NCBI GenBank assembly: GCA_964638865.1
Contig: CAZXBG010000003.1
Location: forward strand, 11,582-68,430
DNA length: 56,849 bases
Reading direction: 5' to 3'
DNA from: an uncultured Chitinophagales bacterium
GTDB lineage: Bacteria > Bacteroidota > Bacteroidia > Chitinophagales > BACL12
Of this stretch, positions 6,435-23,346 are shown one piece after another. Both the position numbers and the translations under genes were made by a program. Under the pieces are notes generated by a model. It was not told the DNA's origin and searched no databases. It worked only from the letters and a program-made list of their open reading frames with translations. Within the stretch, counting starts at the first letter, position 1. Each line of letters begins with the position of its first letter.

Positions 6435-9400
6435 TTAATTTTCATCACTTGATGGAATTTTCTTTTTGGATGAGGACATATAAGTATATAAAAGAGGAAT
6501 TACATAAAGTGTGAGTATCAGTGAAAATAATAATCCGCCAATGATAGCAATACCCATTGATACCCTGCTTTTTGAAGATGCCCCTAATGCAAGTGCAATG
6601 GGTAAAGCGCCCAAAACTGTAGCAAAACTTGTCATAAGAATAGGTCGGAAACGCTGTGATGCAGCTTCTATAGCGGCTTCAAATTTATTCAAACCTGTTT
6701 CTTTTCGCTGATTGGCGAATTCAACAATTAATATTCCGTTTTTAGTAACAATTCCCACAAGTACAATAATACCTATCTGACTAAAAATATTTAATGTTTG
6801 TCCGAATAACGACAAACTCAAAACAGCTCCTGCAAGCGCTAAAGGAACGGTGAACATTACAATAAGAGGATCGCGAAAACTTTCAAATTGTGCCGACAAA
6901 ATAAGATACACCAAAATAAGAGCTAAATAAAACGCAAATTGCAAACTGTTGGAACTCTCCGCAAATTCTTTTGAAGTGCCTGCCAATGCTGTAGAAAAAC
7001 TTTCATCCAAAACTTCTTCTGCAATTTTGTCCATTGTATTTATGCCATCTCCGAGTGTAAATCCGGGTGCCGGGTTTGCGGAAATTGTTGCAGAAACATA
7101 TCTGTTGTATCGAAATAATTGTGGAGGCGAACTTTTATCGGAAAGATGAACAAGATTATCCAGTTGAATTAATTCTCCGCGATTATTTTTTACATAAACT
7201 TTTGTGAGATCAAGAGGTTCATCGCGATTGTCTCTGGTTGCCTGACCAATTATCTGATACTGTTTATTGTTCAAAATAAAAAATCCAAAACGTTGTCCGC
7301 TAAAATACAACTGTAATGATTCCGCAATATCGCGAACAGAAACACCTAAAACCTTCGCACGTTCGCGATCAATTTCCACGGTTAATTCCGGTTTGTTAAA
7401 TTTTAAATTAATATCTACTACCTGAAAAACATTTTCTTGTGCTGCCTTTTCCATAAATTTTGGAATTACCTCCCTCAGTCGCTCAAAATCAGGTGCTTGA
7501 ATTACGTATTGCACAGGAAGTCCTGCACGTCTGTCGCCACCAATCGTTTGTTCCTGACTAATAAATGTTCTTGCGAAATTATATTTCTTTACAATTGCTG
7601 CAACTTCATCGGCAAGTTCTTGTTGCGATTTATCTCTTTCCGTTGCATCCACCAGACTCACTCGAATAAAACTTGAATTTGCAGCACTTGATGATCCGAA
7701 AGAAGGAGCGGTAACGGCAATGATATTTTCTTTTTCCCGGAAGGTATCAACAATACTAATTAATTCCTGATTGAAGGCATCCATACTTTCAAAGGATGTT
7801 CCTTCAGGGGCAGTGGCATTAATTACAAACCGACCTTTATCCTCCATAGGAGCAAGTTCTTCCGGCAATTTTCCACCAAAATAAAATATGATAGCACCAG
7901 AAACTGCAATTAAAATAAAAGCGATCCAACGTATTTTTAATAACGATTGTAAGGAAGAAGCATATCCCTTAATTAATCCTTCAAAAAATGGTTCTGTTTT
8001 TCTATATAACCAATTGTGTTTTTCGCGTTGTTTTAAAATTCGCGCACTCATCATTGGGGTGAGCGTTAAAGAGACTATTGCAGAAATAATAATTGCTCCG
8101 GCAACTGTGATCCCGAATTCACGAAATAATCTTCCTGTTAATCCTTCTAAAAATATTACTGGTAAAAAAACTGCTGCCAATGTTATAGTGGTGGAAATAA
8201 TGGCGAAGGTTATTTCTTTAGAACCTTCGTGCGCTGCTTTATGTGGTGCCATTCCGCGTTCCACTTTTGCGTAAATATTTTCTAACACCACAATAGCGTC
8301 ATCCACCACAATTCCCGTTGCCAAAACAATTCCGAGTAGTGTTAAAACATTGATGGAAAATCCGGATACATACATTATAAAAAATGCACCTATAAGGGAG
8401 ATGGGAATTGCAATAACCGGAATTAAAGTTGTGCGCCAATCGCGCAGAAAAATAAAAATAATAAGCACAACAAGTGCAAATGCAATTAATAAAGTTTCCT
8501 GCACTTCGGAAATTGCTTTTCTGATACTTGTTGTTGTATCGAGAGCAATATTATATTTTAGATCATCCGGTAATTCTCCTTTTATTTGGTCGACCCTGCG
8601 ATAAAATTCATCCGCAATTTCAATATAATTTGAACCCGGCTGCGGGGTTATCGCTACTGCAACTTGCGGAATACCTGCATTCCCACGCAGAATGGTGCGT
8701 TCATTTTCAGGTAATAATTTGGCCTGACCAATATCTTTTAATTTAATTACAGATCCATCTGTTTCATAAATAATAAGATCATTAAAATCTTCCTCTGTAG
8801 TTAATCTTCCGAAAGTGCGAATAGATAATTCAGTAGTGTATCCTTCAATACGACCGGTAGGTAATTCTACATTTTCTCGGTTGAGAGCATCGCGAACATC
8901 TGCAGGAGTTAAATTATATCCGGCCAGTTTTATTGGGTCGAGCAATAATTTCATGGAGTATTTTTTTTCTCCCCATATTCTTATTTCACTAACACCCGGA
9001 ATTGTTTGCAATCTTTCTTTAAAAATATTATTCGCAATTTCCGACAATTCCAATAATGTTTTTTCATTACTTTGAATTGTCATGGAAATAATTGGATTGG
9101 AATCAGCGCTAGACTTTGCAACAACAGGTGGATCACAATCAGGAGGTAAATTTCGAACCGCTTGACTCACTCTGTCGCGCACATCATTAGCAGCAGCCTC
9201 AAGATCAACATCCAATTCAAATTCTACCGTGATAGTACTTCTGCCATCACTGCTTATAGAGGATAAAGATCGAATTCCTGCAATTCCATTGATGGATTCT
9301 TCCATCACTTCTGTAATCTGCGATTCCACAACATCCGCATTTGCGCCGATATAATTTGTAGTAACAGTAATAATAGGAGGATCAACACTTGGATATTCTC

Positions 9401-9503
9401 TTACTCCTAAAAATGAATATCCAATAATTCCGAATAAAACAATAAGAATCGAAATTACCGAAGCAAGTACAGGGCGATTAATTGATATTGATGATATATT
9501 CAT
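6435..9503 (-). CDS. RND efflux permease (AcrB/AcrD/AcrF family)
   Basis: 1022 aa; GIVVDDAIVVLEN, KNGILIVEFA and RFRPILMT motifs. Confidence 0.96.
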   Translation of the reverse strand: MNISSISINRPVLASVISILIVLFGIIGYSFLGVREYPSVDPPIITVTTNYIGANADVVESQITEVMEESINGIAGIRSLSSISSDGRSTITVEFELDVDLEAAANDVRDRVSQAVRNLPPDCDPPVVAKSSADSNPIISMTIQSNEKTLLELSEIANNIFKERLQTIPGVSEIRIWGEKKYSMKLLLDPIKLAGYNLTPADVRDALNRENVELPTGRIEGYTTELSIRTFGRLTTEEDFNDLIIYETDGSVIKLKDIGQAKLLPENERTILRGNAGIPQVAVAITPQPGSNYIEIADEFYRRVDQIKGELPDDLKYNIALDTTTSIRKAISEVQETLLIAFALVVLIIFIFLRDWRTTLIPVIAIPISLIGAFFIMYVSGFSINVLTLLGIVLATGIVVDDAIVVLENIYAKVERGMAPHKAAHEGSKEITFAIISTTITLAAVFLPVIFLEGLTGRLFREFGITVAGAIIISAIVSLTLTPMMSARILKQREKHNWLYRKTEPFFEGLIKGYASSLQSLLKIRWIAFILIAVSGAIIFYFGGKLPEELAPMEDKGRFVINATAPEGTSFESMDAFNQELISIVDTFREKENIIAVTAPSFGSSSAANSSFIRVSLVDATERDKSQQELADEVAAIVKKYNFARTFISQEQTIGGDRRAGLPVQYVIQAPDFERLREVIPKFMEKAAQENVFQVVDINLKFNKPELTVEIDRERAKVLGVSVRDIAESLQLYFSGQRFGFFILNNKQYQIIGQATRDNRDEPLDLTKVYVKNNRGELIQLDNLVHLSDKSSPPQLFRYNRYVSATISANPAPGFTLGDGINTMDKIAEEVLDESFSTALAGTSKEFAESSNSLQFAFYLALILVYLILSAQFESFRDPLIVMFTVPLALAGAVLSLSLFGQTLNIFSQIGIIVLVGIVTKNGILIVEFANQRKETGLNKFEAAIEAASQRFRPILMTSFATVLGALPIALALGASSKSRVSMGIAIIGGLLFSLILTLYVIPLLYTYMSSSKKKIPSSDEN

Positions 9504-10561
9504 TCCTGCGCTTTATTTTCCTTTGGTGAAATCATCAATATGGGTTTTACAGGCATTCCATCGCGCACCGTTAAAAGGCCTGTTACAATTACAGAATCAC
9601 CCGGCATTATTCCTTCCGTAATTTGGGTTTCATTTTCTGATCTGATTCCGGTTTTTACCAATTGAAGAGAGGCGCGCCCATTTTTTACAATTAAAACCGA
9701 TTGGCCGTTAATTGTTGGAATAAGTGCATTGGATGGCAAAACGATCGCATTATCCAGTGTTTCAAGCGATATCTGCAATTTTGCAAAAGCTCCGGGTATT
9801 AATTTGTTTCCGGGGTTTGCACTAATGGCTCTCACTTTTACCGTTCTGGTGGCAGGGTCTATTTTTGGCTCCTTTGCGTAAACCTTTGCAGCATAATTAT
9901 TAAGGTCTCCTTCCACAGTAAAATTTACCACAGTACCATTTTTTAAAAGTGCCGCATATTTTTCAGGAACGCTAAATTCCACTTTTACAGGTTCCGATTG
10001 CTGCAAAACAGTGATCAGGTCTGAAGAGGATACAAATCCCCCCAAACTGATATAACGCAAACCGATTGTGCCGGCAAAAGGTGCTATAACATTTGTTTTA
10101 TTAATTTGGATTTCCAACAATTCCATATCAGCTTCCAATTTCAATAAATTATTTTGCACCTGATCATATTCTTCTTTACTAATGCCATTAATATCCAGCA
10201 GTTTTCTTTTTCGTGTTTCATCCTCCTTTGCTAACAAAATGCTCAGCTCGGCCTTTTTTAATTGTGCTTTTAATTCCCTGTCATCAATTTTAACCAATAG
10301 TTTTCCTGATTGCACCCGTTCGCCCTCCTTAAAATATAATCCGGTGACCCTGCCTTGAATTTCACTTCTTATCTCTACCTCTTCATTGGAAAGTATGGAT
10401 CCAGTGGCATTAATTGAGTTGTCGAGTGCGGCTTGTTTTACAATAACTACCTGCACCGATTGAGCCGGCATAGCACCCTGAGGTCCTGCCGGGGCAGCAT
10501 CCTTTTTCCTGTTACAACCCGAGATAGCTAAAACTGCGATAAAATAAAAAATTGTTTTCAT
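9500..10561 (-). CDS. RND periplasmic adaptor (MFP) lipoprotein
   Basis: Lipobox ISGC, lipoyl/hairpin pattern (VIAPFAGTIG), overlaps the RND start. Confidence 0.93.
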   Translation of the reverse strand: MKTIFYFIAVLAISGCNRKKDAAPAGPQGAMPAQSVQVVIVKQAALDNSINATGSILSNEEVEIRSEIQGRVTGLYFKEGERVQSGKLLVKIDDRELKAQLKKAELSILLAKEDETRKRKLLDINGISKEEYDQVQNNLLKLEADMELLEIQINKTNVIAPFAGTIGLRYISLGGFVSSSDLITVLQQSEPVKVEFSVPEKYAALLKNGTVVNFTVEGDLNNYAAKVYAKEPKIDPATRTVKVRAISANPGNKLIPGAFAKLQISLETLDNAIVLPSNALIPTINGQSVLIVKNGRASLQLVKTGIRSENETQITEGIMPGDSVIVTGLLTVRDGMPVKPILMISPKENKAQE

Positions 10562-12626: not shown

Positions 12627-13697
12627 TTAAAATTCAAGTTTTAATTGCCCGGGTCTTTTGAATTTTGTGAGGTCATATTTGAAAGGTATATTATTTCCCA
12701 TGTATTTTTCTTTCATCATATAGAACATCTGATGAATAACATTTGCAAGTTCTCCGTCGCCGCGCATTCTAACGCCCCATCTGCTATCGTTCAATTTGCC
12801 CTGATGCACTGCCTTGGTATTATTGATTACACGTTCTGCATGCATTGGAAAGGTTTTCCATATCCAGTCGGTAAAAATCTTATCAACTGCACCATTTAAT
12901 CGCAACATATTAAATCCAGCTGTTGATGCACCATTATCTGCAGCAGCCTTTAAAATGGCCGGAATTTCACTGTCCGTAAGGCCCGGAATTACCGGTCCAA
13001 TCATAACTCCCACCGGAATTCCGGCTGATGTTAGTTTTTCCATTGTTTTTAATCTTGCTTTATAACTTGCTGTGCGTGGTTCCATTTTTAACCGAATATC
13101 CTCCTTCAAACTTGTAATGGAAAGAAATATATGTGTAAGATTATCCTTTGCTAATTCCTGTAAAATATCTATATCCCGCAATACCAGCTGGTTTTTGGTG
13201 ATAATGCCCGCTGGATTCTTATACTTCAAACAAACTTCCAGCAATTTTCGGGTGATTTTCATTTTTCTTTCTATGGGTTGATAACAATCCGTATTCCCCG
13301 AAAAAGAAATAGGAGCAGCCTGCCATTTTGGATCAATAAATACTTTTTCCAATAGCTCAGGAGCATTATGTTTTATAATAATTCTGGTTTCAAAATCTAA
13401 ACCCGCACTAAAACCCCAGTAATTATGAGTATTTCGGGCATAACAATACACGCAACCATGCTCACAACCCTGATAAGGATTTACCGAATATACCATTGCG
13501 GCATCAGGACTTTCCACTTTATTGACTACTTTTTTGGCATTTTCCGTAAAAAACAATGTTTCCCGGTCGCCTAACATCTCCTCGTCGAGTCCCTCAATAT
13601 GCTCCTGGGTATAATTTTTATCGTGAAAAGGGTTAAAGGGATTGATCTGCGCTCCCCTTCCTTTTAAAAAATTTTCATTTAATTTTGGAAATTCCAT
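12627..13697 (-). CDS. PA0069/SplB-like radical SAM protein, DNA-repair associated
   Basis: GRGA N-terminal motif, NPYQGCEHGCVYCYAR CxxxCxxC, TDCYQP; likely start is ATG 13697 (ORF track starts at 13718). Confidence 0.9.
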   Translation of the reverse strand: MEFPKLNENFLKGRGAQINPFNPFHDKNYTQEHIEGLDEEMLGDRETLFFTENAKKVVNKVESPDAAMVYSVNPYQGCEHGCVYCYARNTHNYWGFSAGLDFETRIIIKHNAPELLEKVFIDPKWQAAPISFSGNTDCYQPIERKMKITRKLLEVCLKYKNPAGIITKNQLVLRDIDILQELAKDNLTHIFLSITSLKEDIRLKMEPRTASYKARLKTMEKLTSAGIPVGVMIGPVIPGLTDSEIPAILKAAADNGASTAGFNMLRLNGAVDKIFTDWIWKTFPMHAERVINNTKAVHQGKLNDSRWGVRMRGDGELANVIHQMFYMMKEKYMGNNIPFKYDLTKFKRPGQLKLEF

Positions 13698-13751
13698 AAT
13701 TGTCATTATTTTTGACAAATAAAGTCATATTATTTGACAATTACAAATTTA
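13684..13751. promoter_or_regulatory. Overlapping divergent promoters with two tandem palindromic operators (TGTCA-N7-TGACA 13701-13717; AGTCA-N7-TGACA 13723-13739)
   Basis: Plus-strand -33 TTTG 13684-13687 and -7 TATTTTTG 13707-13714 (19-nt spacing); minus-strand -7 TAAATTTG 13751-13744; the palindromes are 22 bp apart. Confidence 0.75.
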
Positions 13752-13761
13752 AAAATAGTTT

Positions 13762-14562
13762 ATGGCACTTATTTCATCCAACTTAAGGCATTTAAGAAAT
13801 GCCCGCAAACTGAGTCAACAAGAGCTTGCAGACATGATGGGCATTGGTAGAACAACAATTGCAAACATAGAAGCAAACCTTGCAAACCCCGGTCATAAGA
13901 CCTTATTGGAAATAGTCAAAATTTTTGACATATCCATTGACGACCTGCTAAATGTTGATCTTTCGCAATTGATAGTTCCGGTTGCATTGAAGGAAGAAAA
14001 AAACAGGGAAGGAATTATCTACCGGCCAATAGTTGTGACAGTTGATTCATCCGGCGATGAAAATATCGTGATGGTTGACACAAAAGCAGCAGCAGGATAC
14101 CCGACCCGATACCTGGAACCCGAATTTTACAAAGAACTTCCGGCGTTTAAACTTCCGGGTTCCGATTATCGCAACGGCACTTTCCGTTGTTTTCAGATAG
14201 AAGGCGACAGTATGCAGGAATCCATCCAAAGCGGAGATTATGTTATTGGTCGTTTTTGTGATAATCACTTTAAAGATGTTCGCGACGGGCATATACATGT
14301 AGTGGTAACAAATGATACCGTTTTAGTTAAACGCCTTGTGAACAAAGCGGAATCAGAACATAAAATGTACCTGATCAGTGATAATGAGGCTTACCCTGAA
14401 CAAGCTTTGGATATAGATGAAATAAAAGAAATTTGGTTTGTAAAGAGCAAACTTTCCTCCTATATGCCTGTAAAAAAGAACGATCTCGATAAGGTTATCG
14501 GCGATCTTACCATGCAGGTGCATTTGTTGAAAAGCAGGCTCGATCATATCGAAAGGAATTAA
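13762..14562 (+). CDS. XRE-HTH + S24 peptidase repressor (phage CI-like / non-canonical LexA)
   Basis: N-terminal HTH_3 (LSQQELADMMGIGRTTIANIE), cleavage site AAAGY, catalytic Ser (GDSM) and Lys (VKRL). Confidence 0.92.
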   Translation: MALISSNLRHLRNARKLSQQELADMMGIGRTTIANIEANLANPGHKTLLEIVKIFDISIDDLLNVDLSQLIVPVALKEEKNREGIIYRPIVVTVDSSGDENIVMVDTKAAAGYPTRYLEPEFYKELPAFKLPGSDYRNGTFRCFQIEGDSMQESIQSGDYVIGRFCDNHFKDVRDGHIHVVVTNDTVLVKRLVNKAESEHKMYLISDNEAYPEQALDIDEIKEIWFVKSKLSSYMPVKKNDLDKVIGDLTMQVHLLKSRLDHIERN

Positions 14563-14773
14563 CTCTGCTCTGCCTTCTTACACTTTATGTGTTGGTTCTC
14601 AAGATTGGAAAAATATTTGGTTATATGTTTTCATCATGAACTGGAGAAGGCAGGGTTGGTTAAACCCTTTATATACATTTAAGACACTGAAAAATATTAA
14701 ACTATTTGGACAATGTCCTAATTTCATTTTTCATCTATAATTGCTTTAAGTAATCTTTTTGCAATTTTGCAGC

Positions 14774-15598
14774 ATGTTCAGCACCTTTTCATCACCAGTT
14801 CAAATCACATCTGCTATTACAGTTGGAGAAAAAAAACCCTTATTAATAGCAGGACCCTGTGTTATTGAAAATCTTGAATTGTGTCTGCTTGTTGCTGAAA
14901 AAATGAAAACGGTAGCCGAAAAACTGGGATATAATTACATCTTCAAAGCTTCTTTCGATAAAGCAAACCGAACAGCGGGCAACTCCTTTCGAGGAGATGG
15001 TTTAGAACACGGACTTAAGGTTCTGCAAACGGTAAAGGAAAAAATAGATGTTCCAATTTTAACGGATATTCATCTCCCCGAACAAGCGGCTTTAGCGGCA
15101 GAAGTGGCGGATGTGCTCCAGATTCCTGCTTTTTTATGTCGCCAAACCGACCTTTTAATAGCAGCGGGAAGAACTGGAAAGACGATAAATGTTAAAAAAG
15201 GGCAATTTATGGCTCCGGAGGATATGCAATATGCGGTTGAAAAAATTGCTTCAGTATTAAATAATAAAGTACTGCTGACAGAACGCGGTTCCAGTTTCGG
15301 ATATCACAATTTAGTGGTAGATATGCGGTCACTGCCTATCATGCGTCAATTTGCTCCTGTAATATTTGATGTTACCCACAGTGTTCAAATGCCCGGGGCT
15401 GAGGCCGGAAAAAGCGGAGGAAAACGAGAATTTGCTCCATATTTAGCCAAAGCGGCAGCTGCAGTAGGTGTTGATGGCTTTTTTATTGAAACGCATCCTG
15501 ATCCTGAAAAAGCATTGAGTGATGGACCGAATATGATTCCACTGCATGAGATGGAAAAACTGCTCAAAACGCTACTGGATATCAGAAATATCTCCTGA
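14774..15598 (+). CDS. kdsA: 3-deoxy-D-manno-octulosonate 8-phosphate synthase (metal-dependent type)
   Basis: [37 protein letters not shown]; likely ATG 14774. Confidence 0.95.
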
Positions 15599-15630
15599 AA
15601 ACAACTTCGTTTTAAAAAAACTCCATAAAA

Positions 15631-15670
15631 TTTGCATAAAATAATTGAATGAGTAATTTTGTTACTCATT
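15631..15670 (+). promoter_or_regulatory. Promoter of the polysaccharide locus (-33 TTTG 15631-15634; -7 TAATTTTG 15654-15661) overlapped by palindrome AATGAGTAA-N5-TTACTCATT (15648-15670)
   Basis: Consensus 19-nt spacing; perfect 9-bp inverted repeat centred on the -7 box. Confidence 0.8.
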
Positions 15671-15677
15671 AGTTTTT

Positions 15678-16220
15678 GTGCTCGACTCACTAATCACATC
15701 CAAAACGCGTGTCAGGCTTTTGTTGCGGTTTTTTTCCAATACAAAATCCTCAGCCCATTTACGTGGATTGGCGAAGGAAATGAATGAATCCACCAATTCC
15801 ATCCGTATTGAACTCAACAAATTATCGAAGGCTGGATTTTTATTATCGCACGAGGAAGGAAAAACGATACAATATCAGGCGAATGAAAAACATCCGCTTT
15901 TTCCGGAAGTGAGCAGTTTGGTGCGCAAATATCTTGGTTTGGACAAGGTAGTAGAAAATATCGTAAATCAAATCGGAGAAATTAAATACGCATTTATTAT
16001 TGGCGATTATGCCGATGGAAAAGATACCGGAATTATTAATCTCGTGATCGCAGGAGAAGTGGATAACAATAAATTAATATATTGGGTGCAAAAAACAGAG
16101 GCGATCATTAACAGAAAAGTACAGACCGAAGTTTTAAGTCAGGAAGAATTTGCCGAATGGCAATTAAACGGCAATTTAACTAATGCAATTGTATTGTGGA
16201 CAGGCAATACAGTTGAATAA
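15678..16220 (+). CDS. ArsR-like winged-helix regulator fused to a degenerate minimal nucleotidyltransferase-fold domain
   Basis: LITSKTRVRLL...HLRGLAKEMNESTNSIRIELNKL wHTH; C-terminal FIIGDYADGKDTGIINL resembling the MNT motif. Confidence 0.8.
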   Translation: MLDSLITSKTRVRLLLRFFSNTKSSAHLRGLAKEMNESTNSIRIELNKLSKAGFLLSHEEGKTIQYQANEKHPLFPEVSSLVRKYLGLDKVVENIVNQIGEIKYAFIIGDYADGKDTGIINLVIAGEVDNNKLIYWVQKTEAIINRKVQTEVLSQEEFAEWQLNGNLTNAIVLWTGNTVE

Positions 16221-16237
16221 ATATAATTAAAAAACAT

Positions 16238-16280
16238 CCTCCCTTATCACGCTTCTGTGACTGAGGAGGCGAAGCTGTGA
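16238..16280 (+). promoter_or_regulatory. ops-like pause element: RNA hairpin followed by GGCGAAGCTGTG
   Basis: Hairpin 16238-16269, GCGAAGC 16269-16275, G-11 G-10 / T-1 G+1 pause consensus at 16278-16279. Confidence 0.6.
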
Positions 16281-16289
16281 AAAAATAAC

Positions 16290-17168
16290 ATGTTCCAACA
16301 CAACTATAAAAATCCAATTATTGTTGCAGAGATCGGTTGCAATCACATGGGCAATTTTGAGATCGCAAAAGAATTAATTAAACTGGCAAAAGACAGCGGT
16401 GCGGATTTTGCAAAATTTCAAAAAAGAAATCCGAAGGAATTATTGGGAGAAGAACAATTTAATGCCCCTCATCCGGAACCCTGGCAGAGTTATGGAGAAA
16501 GTTATGGCAAACACAGAGAATTTCTTGAATTTACAATAGAACAACACGCCGAATTGAAAAGGTTTTCAGAAGAAATTGGAATTCAATATGCAGTTTCTGT
16601 TTGGGATGTAACCAGCGCGCAACAAGTGATCGGATTAAATCCCCAATTTATTAAAGTTCCTTCAGCATGCAATAATAATTATGCATTATTGCAATTAATT
16701 CGCGATAATTATAAGGGAGATGTTCATATATCTGTGGGAATGACAACTACCTCAGAAGTGGAAAAAATAATCCGTTTTTTTGAAGAAAAAGATCAGGCCA
16801 AAAACAGAATTGTATTATACAGTTGCACAAGCGGATATCCTATCGCATTTAAAGAAATTTGTTTATTGGAAATTAATAAGATCTACGAAAACTTTGGTTC
16901 TAAAATAAAAGAAGTGGGTTTTAGCGGTCATCACCTCGGTATAGCTGCAGACATAGCTGCATATACACTTGGAGCAAACTGGATTGAAAGACATTTTACA
17001 AAAGACAGAACATGGAAAGGAACAGATCATGCAGCAAGTCTGGAAGTTCCGGGATTACAAAAATTAGGGCGTGACCTGCATCATATTTATGAAGCACTTC
17101 AGTATAAAGAAAAGGAAATTTTATCGGTGGAAGAAGTACAGAGAAAAAAATTAAAAAATATTCTATAA
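16290..17168 (+). CDS. NeuB-family nonulosonate synthase, short form without SAF domain (probable KDN/Neu5Ac 9-phosphate synthase)
   Basis: AEIGCNHMG, KFQKR, GFSGHH, IERHFT, GTDH. Confidence 0.9.
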   Translation: MFQHNYKNPIIVAEIGCNHMGNFEIAKELIKLAKDSGADFAKFQKRNPKELLGEEQFNAPHPEPWQSYGESYGKHREFLEFTIEQHAELKRFSEEIGIQYAVSVWDVTSAQQVIGLNPQFIKVPSACNNNYALLQLIRDNYKGDVHISVGMTTTSEVEKIIRFFEEKDQAKNRIVLYSCTSGYPIAFKEICLLEINKIYENFGSKIKEVGFSGHHLGIAADIAAYTLGANWIERHFTKDRTWKGTDHAASLEVPGLQKLGRDLHHIYEALQYKEKEILSVEEVQRKKLKNIL

Positions 17169-17169
17169 C

Positions 17170-17898
17170 ATGAAAATCCTTGCAATTATCCCTGCTCGTG
17201 GAGGAAGTAAAGGACTTCCCGGAAAAAATATTAAACCGCTTTTGCAACATCCATTGCTTTCCTATAGTATTTTGGCTGCACAACAAAGTAAATTGATTAA
17301 CAGAATAATTGTGAATACTGATAGTGAGGATATATCAAACATTGCAAAACAATATGGCGCGGAAGTTCCTTTTTTACGTCCAGCCGCATTAGCGCAAGAT
17401 AATTCCACAGATCTTGATGTTTTTGTTCATCAATTACAATGGTTGAAAGAAAATGAAAATTATATTCCTGATCTTATCGTTCAGCTTCGTCCTACTTCAC
17501 CTGTGCGTTTTGAAAATTGGATAGATGATGCTATTGAAAAATTAATTGCAAGTGATGCCGATTCCATTCGCGTAGTAACAGAATCACCACTTACTCCCTT
17601 TAAAATGTGGTTGATTAATAACAATAATGATGGAGCGCTGGAACCATTGGTAACATTAAAAAATATACCTGAACCGTACAACCAGCCCCGTCAGAGTTTA
17701 CCAGTTGTTTACTGGCAAATAGGCACTTTAGATGTGATTAAAACAAATACTATTTCGGAAGGTGGATCAATGAGTGGAAATAAAATTCTTTCCTATCCGG
17801 TGGATAAAAAATATGCAATAGACATTGATGATGTTGCAAGTTTCTATAAAGCGGAGGAATTGATCCAATATAATGATTGTATTAAATTTGATGAATAA
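17170..17898 (+). CDS. neuA: CMP-nonulosonate synthetase (NeuA family)
   Basis: IIPARGGSKGLPGKN, LRPTSP, IDID. Confidence 0.92.
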   Translation: MKILAIIPARGGSKGLPGKNIKPLLQHPLLSYSILAAQQSKLINRIIVNTDSEDISNIAKQYGAEVPFLRPAALAQDNSTDLDVFVHQLQWLKENENYIPDLIVQLRPTSPVRFENWIDDAIEKLIASDADSIRVVTESPLTPFKMWLINNNNDGALEPLVTLKNIPEPYNQPRQSLPVVYWQIGTLDVIKTNTISEGGSMSGNKILSYPVDKKYAIDIDDVASFYKAEELIQYNDCIKFDE

Positions 17899-18871
17899 AA
17901 ATACTCCCATTTTAATTTTCGGAGCAGGATCGATAGGCGAACGGCATATCCGCAATTTATGGACATTGGGATATTGTAATTTATTATTGTATCGTCAACG
18001 CAATTTACCTTTCCGCGATATAGGCGAAGCTGAGGTGCAGGTTTTTTTAGATCTTAATGAAACAAAATCTCTAAACCCGGAAGTTGCATTTATTTGCACG
18101 CCAACTGCTCAACACCTGGAACAAACAATATATTGTGTAGAAAACAAAATGCACGTGTTTGTAGAAAAACCACTTTCGCATACCTTAGAAAATATGGACC
18201 ATCTAAAATCAATTGTAGCTAATTCCAATAAACTGTTACAGGTTGGATTTATGATGCGATTTCATCCCCATATACTTAAAGTTAAAAATTATATTCAGGA
18301 AAATATTTTTGGGGAATTAATATCGTCAACATCTCATTGGGGAAGTTATTTACCCGACTGGCATCCCTGGGAAAATTATAAGGAATCTTATGCGGCTAAA
18401 AAAAATCTGGGTGGTGGAGTTGCCTTGACGCTATGCCACGATATTGATTTGGCGATTTGGCTCGCAATGCGACCAATTAAAAACTATGAAACTAACTTTT
18501 CTTATTCCGGTGAACTGGATATCGAGACAGCATCAATTGCGGATATCGAAATTAATTTTGTGGATGGTGTAAACTCAAGAATACATTTAAATTATCTTGC
18601 CAATCCTCCAATAAGAAAATATCATTGGGAATTTGAGCATGTTTTCATTGATTTTAATTATTTTGATAATTTATTGATCATCAGCTCAAAGAACGACCCT
18701 TTTGAAAACCAGGAGTATAAAATAGAAGCCTTTGATAGAAACCAATTGTTTTTAGCTGAGGTAACCGATTTTTTTTATAAGATTGAAAATATTTCCAACC
18801 CAGTTCAACATTCCTTAAATTCAATACGCGAATCTGAATTATTAATATCTATTTGTAATGGCGACAATTAA
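17891..18871 (+). CDS. Gfo/Idh/MocA oxidoreductase
   Basis: GAGSIGERH, VEKP, YLPDWHPWE, GGGVALTLCHDID; likely ATG 17891 overlapping the neuA end. Confidence 0.88.
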   Translation: MNKNTPILIFGAGSIGERHIRNLWTLGYCNLLLYRQRNLPFRDIGEAEVQVFLDLNETKSLNPEVAFICTPTAQHLEQTIYCVENKMHVFVEKPLSHTLENMDHLKSIVANSNKLLQVGFMMRFHPHILKVKNYIQENIFGELISSTSHWGSYLPDWHPWENYKESYAAKKNLGGGVALTLCHDIDLAIWLAMRPIKNYETNFSYSGELDIETASIADIEINFVDGVNSRIHLNYLANPPIRKYHWEFEHVFIDFNYFDNLLIISSKNDPFENQEYKIEAFDRNQLFLAEVTDFFYKIENISNPVQHSLNSIRESELLISICNGDN

Positions 18872-19700
18872 TTTTACTTGTATAGTCTGCGGCAATGACA
18901 AATATAGTATTCCTTATTCTGAAAAATTTAATGTGCTAGAGTGCACTAAATGTAAATTCGGCATAATTGACCCAATTCCGGTAAATGATGTACTTGTAAA
19001 CTTATACAATACTGAATCGTATTTTAATACCCACATGCAACAGGAATATGAAGCTTTAAACGAACAGGAATTAACAGAATCCGTAAATAAACAGGGTACT
19101 TTTCACTTCCAATATTTAGATAAAATACTTAAACAAAATTCCTCCGTATTAGAAATTGGTCCGGGATATGGTTTGCAATTAAAATATTTATCTAATGCAG
19201 GTTATAAGGTTAAAGGAGTAGAGACATCTGAAAATGCTGTTTCGTTTATTAAAAATAAATTGGGTTTGAAGGTTGAGCGATCAAGTTTGGAAGATTACGA
19301 GGACAAAACCAAATACGATATTTTGATGCTGAACCATGTATTGGAACATTATAGAGATTTACATATTGCGATGCTCAAAATAACATCATTAATCAAAATC
19401 GGAGGACATATATATTTAAGAGTTCCAAACCATGATAGTTACGATAGGCGTAAAATGAAAAAGGAGTGGCCTGCATATCTTCCATTTCATATTTCCTACT
19501 TTTCAAAGAAAAGTCTTAAAATTCTTTTAACAAAATACAATTTTGAGCTCATATGTATGGAAGAATACGTTTCGGATACATTTTTACAAAAAATACCGAA
19601 ATATTTTAAAAAATTTATTAAATATTTTATGTTCATTTTTGGAATATCGCCATATATAAATGGCAGAACTATTACTATAATAGCAAAATACAATGCATAA
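18858..19700 (+). CDS. Class I SAM methyltransferase with N-terminal zinc ribbon
   Basis: CxxC...CxxC, LEIGPGYG, HVLEH, VPN. Confidence 0.85.
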   Translation: MATINFTCIVCGNDKYSIPYSEKFNVLECTKCKFGIIDPIPVNDVLVNLYNTESYFNTHMQQEYEALNEQELTESVNKQGTFHFQYLDKILKQNSSVLEIGPGYGLQLKYLSNAGYKVKGVETSENAVSFIKNKLGLKVERSSLEDYEDKTKYDILMLNHVLEHYRDLHIAMLKITSLIKIGGHIYLRVPNHDSYDRRKMKKEWPAYLPFHISYFSKKSLKILLTKYNFELICMEEYVSDTFLQKIPKYFKKFIKYFMFIFGISPYINGRTITIIAKYNA

Positions 19701-20508
19701 TATTACAATTGAAAATAAGGTAATCTTAGTCACAGGAGCCTTCGGGCTAATAGGCAAAACAATATCAATAAATTTTTTACATCAAGGTGCAAAGGTGATA
19801 TTGGCAGATAATAATTTTTCACAAACAGAGGCAATTTCTTCGGCTTTAAAAGAATTTGATCCGGAAAACTATTTAATAGTTGATTTGGACATTACAGAAG
19901 AAATAAGTTGTGAAAAGGTTATTGAAAAGTCAATTGCAAAATTTGGAAAGATTGATGTACTGATAAACAATGCAGCAATTGATGCCAAATTTGACAAAAG
20001 TAATATTTCGGAGGTCAATCATTCCCGATTTGAAAATTACCCACTTGAACTTTTTAAAAAATCAGTTGATGTTAATATTACAGGCACTGTATTAATGACG
20101 CAAGTAATATGCAGACAAATGCTCAAACAAGGATTTGGGAATATTATTAATGTTGCATCAACTTATTCACTAGTGGCGCCGAATCAGAAATTATATGATT
20201 TCGGTGATGGAACAATTCAATATAAACCTGTTGATTATATTGTAACAAAATCATTTATACCAAATTTTACAAAATACCTTGCAACATTTTATGCACAGAA
20301 TAATATTCGCTGCAATGCAATAGTTCCTCACGGCATATTTAATGATCACGACGAAAAATTTTTGACAAATTTTTCCTCATTGTCGCCAATGGGCCGAATG
20401 GCTGATAAAAATGAAATGTCGGGACCTTTTACATTTCTCGCTTCCGATGCATCCAGTTACATGACAGGGTCTACGCTTGTGGTGGATGGGGGATGGACTG
20501 CCTGGTAA
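19693..20508 (+). CDS. SDR oxidoreductase (PtmA/ElaC-like)
   Basis: TGAFGLIG, INNA, ASTY, YxxxK (YIVTK), VDGGWTAW. Confidence 0.88.
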   Translation: MHNITIENKVILVTGAFGLIGKTISINFLHQGAKVILADNNFSQTEAISSALKEFDPENYLIVDLDITEEISCEKVIEKSIAKFGKIDVLINNAAIDAKFDKSNISEVNHSRFENYPLELFKKSVDVNITGTVLMTQVICRQMLKQGFGNIINVASTYSLVAPNQKLYDFGDGTIQYKPVDYIVTKSFIPNFTKYLATFYAQNNIRCNAIVPHGIFNDHDEKFLTNFSSLSPMGRMADKNEMSGPFTFLASDASSYMTGSTLVVDGGWTAW

Positions 20509-20535
20509 AACAAACGTTCAATTAAAAATCTATTT

Positions 20536-21036
20536 ATGCAAAAAAAGATTAAACTTTTTTTATCGGATGTTGACGGAGTTTTGACCGACTCCGGGATGTA
20601 TTACACAGAAAGTGGTGATGAATTTAAAAAATTTAATACACATGATGGAATGGGTTTTAATCTTTTAAAAGCAGCCGGAATTAAAACAGGAATAATTACT
20701 ACTGAAAAAACAAATATTGTTAATAATCGCGCAACAAAGTTGAAAATTGACTATGTGTATCAGGGTGTCGGCTTCGGAGGGAAACTGGAATCTGCGCGAG
20801 AAATTTGCAAACTCGAAAATATAACAATGGAGGAAGTTGCCTATATTGGTGATGATATTAATTGTTTTGACTTGTTAAGTGAGGTTGGCTTAGCAGCTTG
20901 TCCTGCAAACGCTAACAAAAAAATAAAAGCCATCCCGGGCATAATTCACTTAAATAAATCCGGGGGAGATGGTGCAGTTCGGGAATTTATCGACGAATAT
21001 ATTTTAACCGGAGAACAGCATGAAGAAGGTCAATAG
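20536..21036 (+). CDS. KdsC-family HAD phosphatase (KDO8P/KDN9P phosphatase)
   Basis: DVDGVLTD, DGMG, YIGDDIND, GGDGAVRE. Confidence 0.92.
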   Translation: MQKKIKLFLSDVDGVLTDSGMYYTESGDEFKKFNTHDGMGFNLLKAAGIKTGIITTEKTNIVNNRATKLKIDYVYQGVGFGGKLESAREICKLENITMEEVAYIGDDINCFDLLSEVGLAACPANANKKIKAIPGIIHLNKSGGDGAVREFIDEYILTGEQHEEGQ

Positions 21037-21823
21037 TATTTTCTACCGATTAATTCAATTTGTTACAAAAAATTATTCTGTAACACAAAAGGAAAAATTT
21101 ATTGCGGGAATGCTTTTTTTTATCTCGAAGAAGGACAATGCCGAAACAAAAAATAAACTCCGGTTATTACTTTACGATGAGAGGCTTAAACCTTATCCTG
21201 TAGTTGGGTACCAAGAGCGTTTGAGATATTATGGCTGGTTTGAAATGTTGTCCAATCTGCAAAAGGTGGAAGGAGATATTGTGGAAGCAGGAACTGGTTA
21301 TGGCAATACATTGATCACTTTTTTGAGTGCAAATAACTATTTTAATTCTTCCAAAAAAATATATGCCTTTGATTCCTTTGAAGGATTTCCTATTCCACAT
21401 TCAAATGATATTGGCAGCAAGGTGCAACCTAACGAAAAAATATTGGGATGGGATGATGCCTCTCCAGCATTGATAGAAGACAGTATTGTATTTCACACAG
21501 CTAAAAATGATCTCAAATTAAATGCTGCATCCATCATTTTCAGAAAAGGTTTTTTTAAAGATACCATGCCGCAGGGCTTACCGGAAAAGATTAGTCTGTT
21601 GCATGTAGATAACGATTTATATGAGGGAGTATTGCAGGTGTTACATTCCAGTTTTAAAAGACTTCAACCTAATGCAGTTGTAATATTTGATGAGTATCAC
21701 GATGAAAAATGGCCGGGAGTTAAAAAGGCAGTAGATGAATTTGCCGAAATATTTACACTTAAAATTCAATATTTTCCATCTTTGCTCCGCTTTGGGTTTA
21801 TAAAAAGCGCAGAGACAACTTAA
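21020..21823 (+). CDS. TylF/MycF/NovP-family O-methyltransferase
   Basis: GDIVEAG, FDSFEGFP, KGFFKDT, LHVDNDLY, FDEY. Confidence 0.88.
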   Translation: MKKVNSIFYRLIQFVTKNYSVTQKEKFIAGMLFFISKKDNAETKNKLRLLLYDERLKPYPVVGYQERLRYYGWFEMLSNLQKVEGDIVEAGTGYGNTLITFLSANNYFNSSKKIYAFDSFEGFPIPHSNDIGSKVQPNEKILGWDDASPALIEDSIVFHTAKNDLKLNAASIIFRKGFFKDTMPQGLPEKISLLHVDNDLYEGVLQVLHSSFKRLQPNAVVIFDEYHDEKWPGVKKAVDEFAEIFTLKIQYFPSLLRFGFIKSAETT

Positions 21824-21825
21824 AT

Positions 21826-23346
21826 ATGTCGATAACCAAAAACTTTATCAAAAATTTGGCGAGTAACTACTTTATTCTCTTTTTAAAGATCATTTATTCA
21901 ATCTTATTCGTTCCCATAATTTTAAATGTTTATGGCGAAGCACAATTTGGAATGTATATGCTGATATTCGGGCTAACATACACGATAGGTTTTTTTGATT
22001 TTGGCGCAGGCAAATCAGTTTTGAAATATGCAGCGGAATATAAAGCCGACAATGACCGAAATAAATTTCAGGAAGCGTTTTCCGTTAATATTTCACTTAT
22101 ACTCATTTCGTCGGTAGTTATTTTTTTACTTATTATGCTTTTAAGTTTATGGGCAGGGCCCTTATTTAATATAGAAGCCGATCAACTTCAATTGGCGCGC
22201 ACTGTTTTTATTGTTTCCGCATTGAACGGAGTGGTTTTGTTTCTCGATTATATTCCTTCCAATATTTTAACCGGTTTTAGTTATTTTCATAAACGCAATA
22301 AACTACAGTTGCTTCCTCTTGCCTTAAACATGGGTTTACTTTATATCGTAGCTGTTTTGTCAAAAATTACTTTGATCCAGTATTGTTTGCTAACAACGGG
22401 CATTAATCTGATATTTTTAATAGGTGACATTATATTACTCAGATCAATCCCTGAAATGAGAGAGGTGAAATTTGCTTTACATTTTAAAAAAGATCTTTTA
22501 TCCAATAAGTATACGAAGTTCTCCATAGTATTATTTGCTATTTCCGCAGTTGGCTTTTTAGGGATTCAATCAGACAGGATTATTCTCGCTTCCATCATAA
22601 ACATTTCGGCAGTTACCATTTACACCATTGTAACACGACCCTATTTTTTACTGAAAACGATCATGGGTAGCAGTTACAGTGTTATCCAACCTATACTGAT
22701 CAAAACACAGCTTTTAGATGAGGAACGTTTTTTTGGAATACTGGAAAGATTTACAAGAATTTCATTTATCATGATCTTCAGTGTTGTATTGATTTTCAGT
22801 ATCTTTTTTGAAACAATTATGCGTTTATGGTTGTCTACTGCTAATTACGATGAGTATACAATATGGGGTATTTTTGCATTGATCAATATTTGCATCCCGA
22901 CGTTATATGGTGCCATATCACGAACCTTACTATTAACCACAGGTTCAGGTAATTTATTAAAGTATAATTCTATTGCCATAACAATAAATTTTATCAGCAG
23001 CATCTTCCTTGTTTATTATATTGGATTTCAAGGCGTTATAATTGGTACTACAATACAGTTCATTTTTGAATTTTATGTGATCAATCTAATTTCTATTAAA
23101 CATTTAAAATTTCCATTGAGAAGGATATTTTCCAAAGACTTTGTATTATATTCCCTATTACTGTTAGCCACTGCAGTAATATTTCGTTTGATTTTTGAAG
23201 GAATGGCTCCGTTAGTGACAGGGCAGTTCATGTTACTGTTGAGCATGACTATTGTTGTTTTTGGAATACTCAACTACCTGTTTATTTCAAATACAGGATA
23301 CGGCTTTCTGTTCAGGAGATCATACTGGCAAAATATAAATTCGTGA
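21826..23346 (+). CDS. wzx: Wzx oligosaccharide flippase
   Basis: 506 aa, many TM segments, FGMY...DFG pattern, SDRIIL; locus context. Confidence 0.85.
   Translation: MSITKNFIKNLASNYFILFLKIIYSILFVPIILNVYGEAQFGMYMLIFGLTYTIGFFDFGAGKSVLKYAAEYKADNDRNKFQEAFSVNISLILISSVVIFLLIMLLSLWAGPLFNIEADQLQLARTVFIVSALNGVVLFLDYIPSNILTGFSYFHKRNKLQLLPLALNMGLLYIVAVLSKITLIQYCLLTTGINLIFLIGDIILLRSIPEMREVKFALHFKKDLLSNKYTKFSIVLFAISAVGFLGIQSDRIILASIINISAVTIYTIVTRPYFLLKTIMGSSYSVIQPILIKTQLLDEERFFGILERFTRISFIMIFSVVLIFSIFFETIMRLWLSTANYDEYTIWGIFALINICIPTLYGAISRTLLLTTGSGNLLKYNSIAITINFISSIFLVYYIGFQGVIIGTTIQFIFEFYVINLISIKHLKFPLRRIFSKDFVLYSLLLLATAVIFRLIFEGMAPLVTGQFMLLLSMTIVVFGILNYLFISNTGYGFLFRRSYWQNINS

Follow-up and report, generated by a model that had tools for sequence, protein, structure and literature searches.

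The window analysed here is a stretch of 56,849 nucleotides of DNA from an uncultured Chitinophagales bacterium. It carries a repressor gene (13762..14562, plus strand) and, divergent from it, a gene for a PA0069-family (SplB-like) radical SAM protein (12627..13697, minus strand). The neighbours in the window are host genes, including those for a KdsA-like synthase, a deacetylase and a sulfotransferase. The radical SAM protein was assigned to the PA0069 family on the basis of its match to NF033668 (460 bits against a cut-off of 360) and a CxxxCxxC motif at residues 78-85. It is not SplB proper, scoring 28.4 against 400 bits with TIGR04070 and 19.4 against 27 with PF20903, and the 'DNA repair' role attributed to the family is an annotation by likeness to SplB. 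A first-pass annotation of the window had placed two tandem palindromes in a divergent gap of 64 nt between the two genes; this length holds if the radical SAM gene starts at the ATG at 13697, and not if the alternative in-frame ATG at 13706, inside the first palindrome, is used.

The repressor protein

The repressor of 266 amino acids combines a CI/XRE-type helix-turn-helix (HTH), an S24 peptidase domain and a C-terminal helix, an architecture known from the non-canonical LexA proteins of Bacteroidota. Pfam matches were obtained for HTH_3 (residues 8-62, E 1.7e-13) and Peptidase_S24 (residues 108-221), and the protein is the sole match to PF00717 (S24) in its own genome. The structure model (mean pLDDT 73, with the linker and the cleavage loop below 50) consists of five N-terminal helices, a beta domain of the S24 type and, at the C-terminus, a long helix (238-265). 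In fold comparison it matched the C-domain of LexA and lambda CI best. The predicted cleavage bond Ala111-Gly112 (codons at 14092..14097, plus strand) and the predicted catalytic residues Ser150 (14209..14211, plus) and Lys190 (14329..14331, plus) are retained, in agreement with the first-pass annotation, and are invariant in an alignment of 30 proteins.

The repressor does not carry a winged helix, as judged from the absence of a PF01726 match and a TIGR00498 score of 23.5 bits against a cut-off of 110.95, and is therefore not a canonical LexA. It has the structure described for Bacteroidetes non-canonical LexA, i.e. a CI-like PF01381 HTH, an S24 domain with Ala-Gly and the Ser/Lys dyad and the extra C-terminal helix.

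Operators and promoters in the divergent gap

Palindrome 1 (TTGTCATTATTTTTGACAA, 13700-13718) and palindrome 2 (AGTCATATTATTTGACA, 13723-13739) occur exactly where they had been placed, and the separation of 22 bp reported for them is that of their cores, which begin at 13702 and 13724. The core of operator 1 (GTCATTATTTTTGAC, 13702..13716) encloses the -7 element of the repressor promoter and is adjacent to the radical SAM start or overlaps with it, and that of operator 2 (GTCATATTATTTGAC, 13724..13738) lies between two predicted face-to-face start sites. Both of the operators proposed earlier are real; a third box, operator 3 (GTCAAAATTTTTGAC, 13915..13929), had been overlooked within the repressor coding sequence (+153), where it is likely to be auxiliary. 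None of the three palindromic sites is assigned a strand.

Three exact matches to GTCA-N7-TGAC are observed in the window against 0.28 expected, a number that none of 100 shuffles attained. Across the genome, the bare 8-base pattern shows no enrichment at N7, with 18 occurrences as compared to 5-18 at the other spacers between N0 and N15, and all three W-flanked matches in the 3.8 Mb of genome G023 fall at the repressor locus. The signal of GTCA-N7-TGAC is the location of the sites and not their genome-wide number.

The repressor promoter carries a sigma-A-type -7 element, TATTTTTG, at 13707..13714 (plus strand), which follows the consensus given in PMC9723704. As the first-pass annotation had stated, this element lies in operator 1, and in 18 of 19 orthologue loci it is likewise enclosed by a box not more than 250 bp from the start. 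The accompanying -33 element, TTTG, is found 19 nt upstream (13684..13687, plus), in keeping with the -33 consensus and its spacing from the -7 element; a TTG at a spacing of 19-20 nt is present in 18 of the 19 loci. For the radical SAM promoter, the -7 box described earlier on the minus strand (TAAATTTG, 13744..13751) exists in the window but is a weakly conserved candidate, being exact at this place in only 6 of 19 orthologue loci, with the final TTG kept in 14. Since a sigma-A -7 box occupies -12 to -5 (PMC9723704), transcription is predicted to start at about 13719 for the repressor (plus) and at about 13739 for the radical SAM gene (minus), and the two predicted transcripts would face each other across operator 2.

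Operator 3 is present in 14 of the 20 orthologue loci examined. The codon of Val52 at this site is GTC in 14 of 16 Val rows, as compared to 0-1 of 12-19 at 16 other Val columns, which points to selection acting on the DNA. The six loci without the +153 box represent a few related lineages and not six events, and each has other extra sites: in four of them a box lies at about -254, within the coding sequence of the radical SAM protein (perfect in three, with one mismatch in the fourth), and in the remaining two the gap is longer and contains additional clusters. The two intragenic box positions are 191 and 193 bp away from the nearest promoter box.

Conservation and specificity of the box

The 20 orthologue loci (identity of at least 65%, the window's own locus included) belong to genera g1, g2, g4 and g5 of one uncultured Chitinophagales family, and the radical SAM gene is the divergent neighbour of the repressor in 19 of them. 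Conservation of the palindromes in orthologous gaps, which the first-pass annotation had named among the tests of its proposal, was found at 19 of the 20 loci, with a box within 130 bp of the start; 18 loci have at least two copies. At the remaining locus an insertion has placed two boxes further away, 391-413 bp upstream and beside the radical SAM start. The wider comparison covered 179 distinct repressors, collected by searching the family, the order, the class and the phylum as well as metagenomes and viral sequences. A box is present within 250 bp upstream in 18 of the 19 clade members and in none of the 160 others, 151 of which had at least 200 bp of upstream sequence; the box-carrying genomes are all kin and hence these counts are not independent events. 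Conversely, CTAA-N5-TTAG and GGA-W5-TCC are absent from all 19 clade promoters, and CTAA boxes occur at 74 of the 179 repressors. GTCA-N7-TGAC was also not found upstream of the nearest phage-like relatives in the contexts checked, which exclude those of P0039-P0045.

A survey of 301 genomes of the order showed that matches above 40% identity are confined to the family of the window. The repressor clade is represented in 20 of the 23 genomes of the four genera, the three misses being 67, 79 and 90% complete. All five genomes of genus g3 have distant homologues only (33-40% identity), and the four inspected carry CTAA-N5-TTAG; among the four g3 radical SAM promoters, one of which is partly N, a perfect box of either type was not observed.

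These distributions bear on the possibility that the palindrome is a by-product of promoter sequence (either back-to-back TTGACA-like hexamers or the -7 box) or is bound by some unrelated factor. The -7 element does lie within operator 1, TTGACA is known as the classical -35 hexamer and the bare pattern is not enriched genome-wide, all of which would fit such an origin. However, a -7 element is not required in operators 2 and 3 or in the distal boxes of dinB described below, and yet these sites keep both arms with variable spacers; in 12 aligned loci, both arms are conserved, with variation in the spacer of operator 2 and in the flanks. The box moreover tracks the repressor clade in the counts given above, and the matches in G023 are all at the repressor locus, so that an accidental or unrelated palindrome is very improbable.

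Repair genes associated with the box

Upstream regions of repair genes were scanned with a matrix trained on the repressor loci only, for which the background is 5 of 2575 own-genome upstream regions scoring above 14. The sequences left out were L080 (contig start), five IMS matches, the truncated uvrA sequences L359 and L363 and 16 further uvrA matches. dinB is a classic SOS target and exists here as two paralogues, the 'DLDT' and 'DLDS' types. The scan of recA and dinB that had been recommended as a check gave a divided answer. A perfect box is present upstream of all 12 stand-alone 'DLDT' dinB genes of g1, and none of 24 recA regions scores above 9. In 11 of the 12 the dinB box encloses a TAnnTTTG -7 element, the proximal box wrapping it as operator 1 does (GTCA-n-TAnnTT-TGAC). 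None of 10 'DLDS' paralogues scores above 9. Of the 8 long g1 regions examined, 6 have a full-length dnaE2-like gene after dinB, and in the other two (G002 and G007) the ORF caller gave an 838-aa piece at the place of dnaE2. In g2, g4 and g5, genes of the same dinB clade follow the repressor gene in the same orientation at a distance of 0.1-3.2 kb, and they lack a box (5/5). Both g3 dinB genes examined carry CTAA-N5-TTAG, and g3 dinB genes are also preceded by GCCAA-N5-TTGGC-like sites.

In the window's own assembly, dnaE2 is located on a 3.6-kb contig, and the boxed dinB is absent, falling between two contig ends. Eight of the runs that best contain the window's DNA are possible sources of it, and four runs with window DNA yielded a contig about 92% identical to the dinB 5' region of G002. 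This contig spans the proximal box, within which no differences are listed, and is likely to belong to the organism of the window. The runs listed for the locus include no RNA run, which has no bearing on its expression. In two of the genomes with a boxed dinB, G005 (67% complete) and G016 (90%), a repressor match was not found.

The uvrA gene of the window has no upstream box, as had been noted earlier, and the same is true of all 28 uvrA loci. Upstream boxes are likewise absent at radC (0/6), recN (0/4), parE (0/5) and gyrB (0/5). The candidate target uvrC was rejected, as only one of 25, that of the own genome, has a site, with one mismatch. As recA, uvrA, radC, recN and parE are unboxed, the regulon is small, and a broad canonical SOS network was not found among the recA, uvrA, uvrC, radC, recN and parE families. 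Twenty further pattern matches were considered and rejected as regulon members, none being at a recognisable repair gene start; one is inside a recQ-like gene and one is at a truncated repressor copy. No tRNA was found at nine orphan sites. CTAA boxes in the own genome show no spacer-specific excess, and none of 45 such sites precedes a gene that its N-terminal sequence, the sole criterion used, marked as a repair gene. One further site in the own genome is adjacent to htpG.

Proposed mode of action

Taken together, the sequence data make it probable that the locus encodes a damage switch, in which a CI-like HTH-S24 repressor of GTCA-N7-TGAC promoters would cleave itself upon contact with RecA-ssDNA. 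The domains, the catalytic residues, the sites, their conservation and restriction to the repressor clade and their presence at dinB are direct observations; the steps linking them are proposed. The repressor is likely to bind GTCA-N7-TGAC as a dimer and, when bound, would repress its own gene, the divergent PA0069-family gene and the dinB-dnaE2 cassette. DNA damage would generate RecA-ssDNA filaments, which would trigger self-cleavage of the repressor. Operator 1 would cover the repressor -7 element and operator 2 the region between the face-to-face starts, and from these positions one occupied pair would shut both genes. The third box, located about 190 bp away inside either coding sequence, is likely to have an auxiliary role, possibly through a DNA loop. 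recA and the excision-repair genes would fall outside the regulon.

The absence of a box at recA could also mean that the repressor binds these sites in response to an inducer other than RecA or DNA damage, such as another protease or a stress signal. Against this, the Ala-Gly, Ser and Lys residues are invariant, and the targets dinB, dnaE2 and the SplB-like gene are mitomycin-inducible under related regulators (PMC8565304). Further, recA is also uninduced in Salegentibacter agarivorans and is not under the control of the Francisella regulator FddR. A different inducer is accordingly rated quite unlikely.

Comparison with known systems

PMC8565304 (Sanchez-Osuna et al. 2021) describes validated CTAA-N5-TTAG and GGA-N5-TCC motifs and one variant TTAC-N5-GTAA site. 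The first-pass annotation had called the box of the window different from GGA-N5-TCC; it does match none of the published motifs, but GGA-N5-TCC is not the sole one, CTAA-N5-TTAG and TTAC-N5-GTAA being known as well. The box is also absent from Table S10 of that paper, which gives 44 diverged palindromes with 4-bp arms and 5-bp spacers only, near forms such as TCAT-N5-ATGA and ATCA-N5-TGAT being among them. The type of system is known, and a GTCA-N7-TGAC operator was not found in the literature searched, although other spellings, subscription journals and supplements might contain one.

On sequence grounds, the repressor is classed as a Bacteroidota non-canonical LexA outside both published motif groups and with no broad regulon. 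It resembles the CTAA-N5-TTAG group (Pontibacter actiniarum WP_025606010.1) in its HTH_3, S24 and C-terminal helix organisation, likely autoregulation, tandem boxes 21-23 bp apart, predicted PA0069/SplB-like and dinB-dnaE2 targets and a palindrome with an AT-rich spacer of similar length. Table S5 of PMC8565304 gives, for Chitinophaga caeni, a PA0069 gene and a repressor with tandem CTAA boxes 21 and 22 bp apart, i.e. the same targets and layout with other box letters. The repressor differs from the CTAA group in the box letters, the recognition helix and the catalytic-domain clade, and recA, recN, radC and parE, reported as typical CTAA targets, are unboxed here. With the GGA-N5-TCC group (S. 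agarivorans WP_075324850.1), it shares the side of the catalytic-domain tree and the motifs KAAAGYP and R-x-FQ-[IV]-EGDSM; the GGA regulon and the one predicted here are both built around dinB-dnaE2 and SplB-like genes, and recA was uninduced in the species tested (PMC8565304). The GGA proteins, mainly of Flavobacteriaceae, differ strongly in their DNA-binding domain, their box of 11 bp as compared to 15 bp here and an identity of only about 33-36%.

Francisella FddR (PMC13148647) is comparable in being a co-opted S24 repressor of phage type that is divergent from its target gene; its damage regulon is small, has dinB as a member in some species and lacks recA. FddR differs in its GTG-N11-CAC box, its lambdoid clade, its occurrence in Gammaproteobacteria and the unknown function of its core target. 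The S24 fold and the catalytic residues are shared with lambda CI (3bdn) and E. coli LexA (1jhe, 8trg), and the five-helix N-terminal domain with CI, whereas the repressor has no winged helix, an extra C-terminal helix and putative chromosomal host targets.

The findings add a phylogenetically bounded candidate damage-response operator to those of Bacteroidota and provide a close-range case for the idea, advanced in PMC8565304 and PMC13148647, that captured phage repressors rebuild SOS networks: sister genera of one family have unrelated repressors and boxes with the same kind of polymerase cassette. The layout of an operator around the -7 box and the auxiliary site in a coding sequence are concrete design features.

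Origin of the repressor

The input for phylogenetic analysis comprised 95 rows, i.e. 81 of the 179 locus proteins and 14 database proteins, the 22 CTAA rows being chosen at random; 27 rows (long branches and near duplicates) were left out of the careful catalytic-domain tree, which has 68 rows and 149 columns. In this tree the repressor clade is monophyletic (100/100) and sides with the GGA group and with unclassified, viral and phage-like repressors (96/92), at a remove from the CTAA proteins. GGA proteins form a clade of their own, supported at 100/100 in the catalytic-domain tree and at 99 in the N-domain tree. A union of the repressor clade with the CTAA clade was rejected by the AU test (p-AU 0.004), in which six unclassified rows held with CTAA had been picked after a quick tree. 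In the tree of the DNA-binding domain (63 columns), the clade, the CTAA proteins and the phage-like proteins are not resolved from one another.

The repressor is therefore likely to be a separate phage-repressor recruit that replaced a CTAA-type regulator in four of the five genera. The RecA tree is unrooted and has no outgroup, and hence the direction of this replacement is deduced from how widely CTAA boxes are distributed, as is also reported in PMC8565304.

An alternative, with the same function and another origin, is a drifted CTAA regulator or a chimeric protein whose DNA-binding domain is CTAA-like; two substitutions in each half-site would then have turned CTAA-N5-TTAG into the present box. 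In favour of this, TCAW-N5-WTGA, the inner 13 bp of the box, shares the geometry of CTAA-N5-TTAG, GCCAA-N5-TTGGC-like sites lie before g3 dinB genes, PMC8565304 describes motif drift among CTAA paralogues, and the N-terminal tree places both kinds of protein in one group, without internal resolution, that excludes GGA. From this tree and the box geometry, a chimeric or drifted origin of the DNA-binding domain may still be entertained. Drift of the whole protein from a CTAA regulator, which was the first idea, is weakened by the catalytic-domain tree, where several starred branches part the clade from the CTAA proteins, and by the AU test. The recognition helix also differs, being RT(T/A)(I/V)AN(I/Y)E in the clade and RS(L/M)(V/L/I)GAYEE in most CTAA proteins, and identity to the g3 homologues is only 33-40%; overall, descent from the CTAA regulator is considered rather unlikely.

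The recruitment of a separate phage repressor can be tentatively extended to a wider scenario, which is possible though on the whole doubtful. On three independent occasions, the present one being the third, Bacteroidota would have captured a phage repressor of the CI type as a host damage regulator, and in four genera of a single family the captured protein would have ousted the CTAA-type LexA. An early rebuilding of the network would have passed from a self-contained radical SAM / repressor-dinB-dnaE2 unit to a split-off dinB-dnaE2 with boxes of its own. The operator nests the sigma-A -7 element, so that promoters might be recruited by few changes, and the coding-sequence operator about 190 bp off, on either side, might close a CI-like DNA loop.

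A near relative by catalytic domain, L248, is encoded on a viral contig, where a transposase gene and a small divergent ORF are its neighbours. This might suggest that the locus is an immunity remnant of a prophage or mobile element with no role in the host. The neighbours of the repressor in the window are host genes, however, and the gene is kept in most genomes of four genera (20/23); the boxes at the unlinked dinB promoter largely refute such a remnant, which is hardly credible as an explanation of the locus.

Genes associated with the dinB-dnaE2 cassettes

In two related genomes, the interval separating the repressor from dinB contains an insertion of two genes, one of the TcmP family and a three-Cys/radical-SAM-like partner (8557-10412 in locus L128 of G023 and 7520-9372 in L130 of G020, in coordinates local to each locus), and, given this position, the pair may be co-regulated with the repressor-dinB array. 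In genera g2 and g4 (L127, L128, L129 and L131), dnaE2 is followed immediately by a uvrA gene in the same orientation; these uvrA copies lack a GTCA-N7-TGAC box of their own and could be reached by read-through from dnaE2.

Several cassettes of g1, the genus of the source genome, and of g3, the genus with the CTAA-N5-TTAG system, carry an ORF facing dnaE2 convergently (L123:3160-3849; also L124, L126 and L136), which is putatively SRAP-like, judging from its N-terminus. The g3 counterpart matched NF007413, and no above-threshold box was found at this ORF in the four loci.

Variant repressor loci and a second cassette

Genome G014 encodes a second HTH-S24 repressor, a distant relative of the main one, with a divergent dinB-dnaE2 cassette of its own (L140:3086-8166). 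The palindrome TGTGAATTAAATTCACA is located upstream, an integrase-like ORF is found close by and the cassette is probably mobile.

An additional copy of the repressor 5' end, including all three boxes, is present at a contig end in G019 (L121:1946-2206) and represents either a duplication or an assembly artefact; the main repressor locus of this genome lacks the divergent radical SAM gene. In G024 (L015), a short tandem-repeat-like insertion 130 bp upstream of the repressor places about 350 bp between the repressor start and its boxes.

Other box matches and neighbouring genes

A high-scoring box occurs between convergent genes, immediately 3' of a pyruvate-phosphate-dikinase-like gene, in the g1 genomes G011, G010 and G014 (L103:1507-1525, L105:1502-1520 and L119:1531-1549, respectively), preceded by a conserved CCGTGGAACATA about 30 bp ahead. 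Neither an ORF longer than 55 aa nor a tRNA was detected around it, and the source genome has no box at this position. A GTCA-N7-TGAC match within the coding sequence of a second SplB-like radical SAM ORF of the source genome (contig C27:19233-20126) is likely due to chance.

Following the repressor, positions 14759-23346 of the window encode a KdsA-like synthase, a small HTH protein and a cluster that, on visual inspection of the translated sequences, looks like one for a nonulosonic-acid-type synthase, a cytidylyltransferase and polysaccharide export; these genes are unrelated to the repressor switch.
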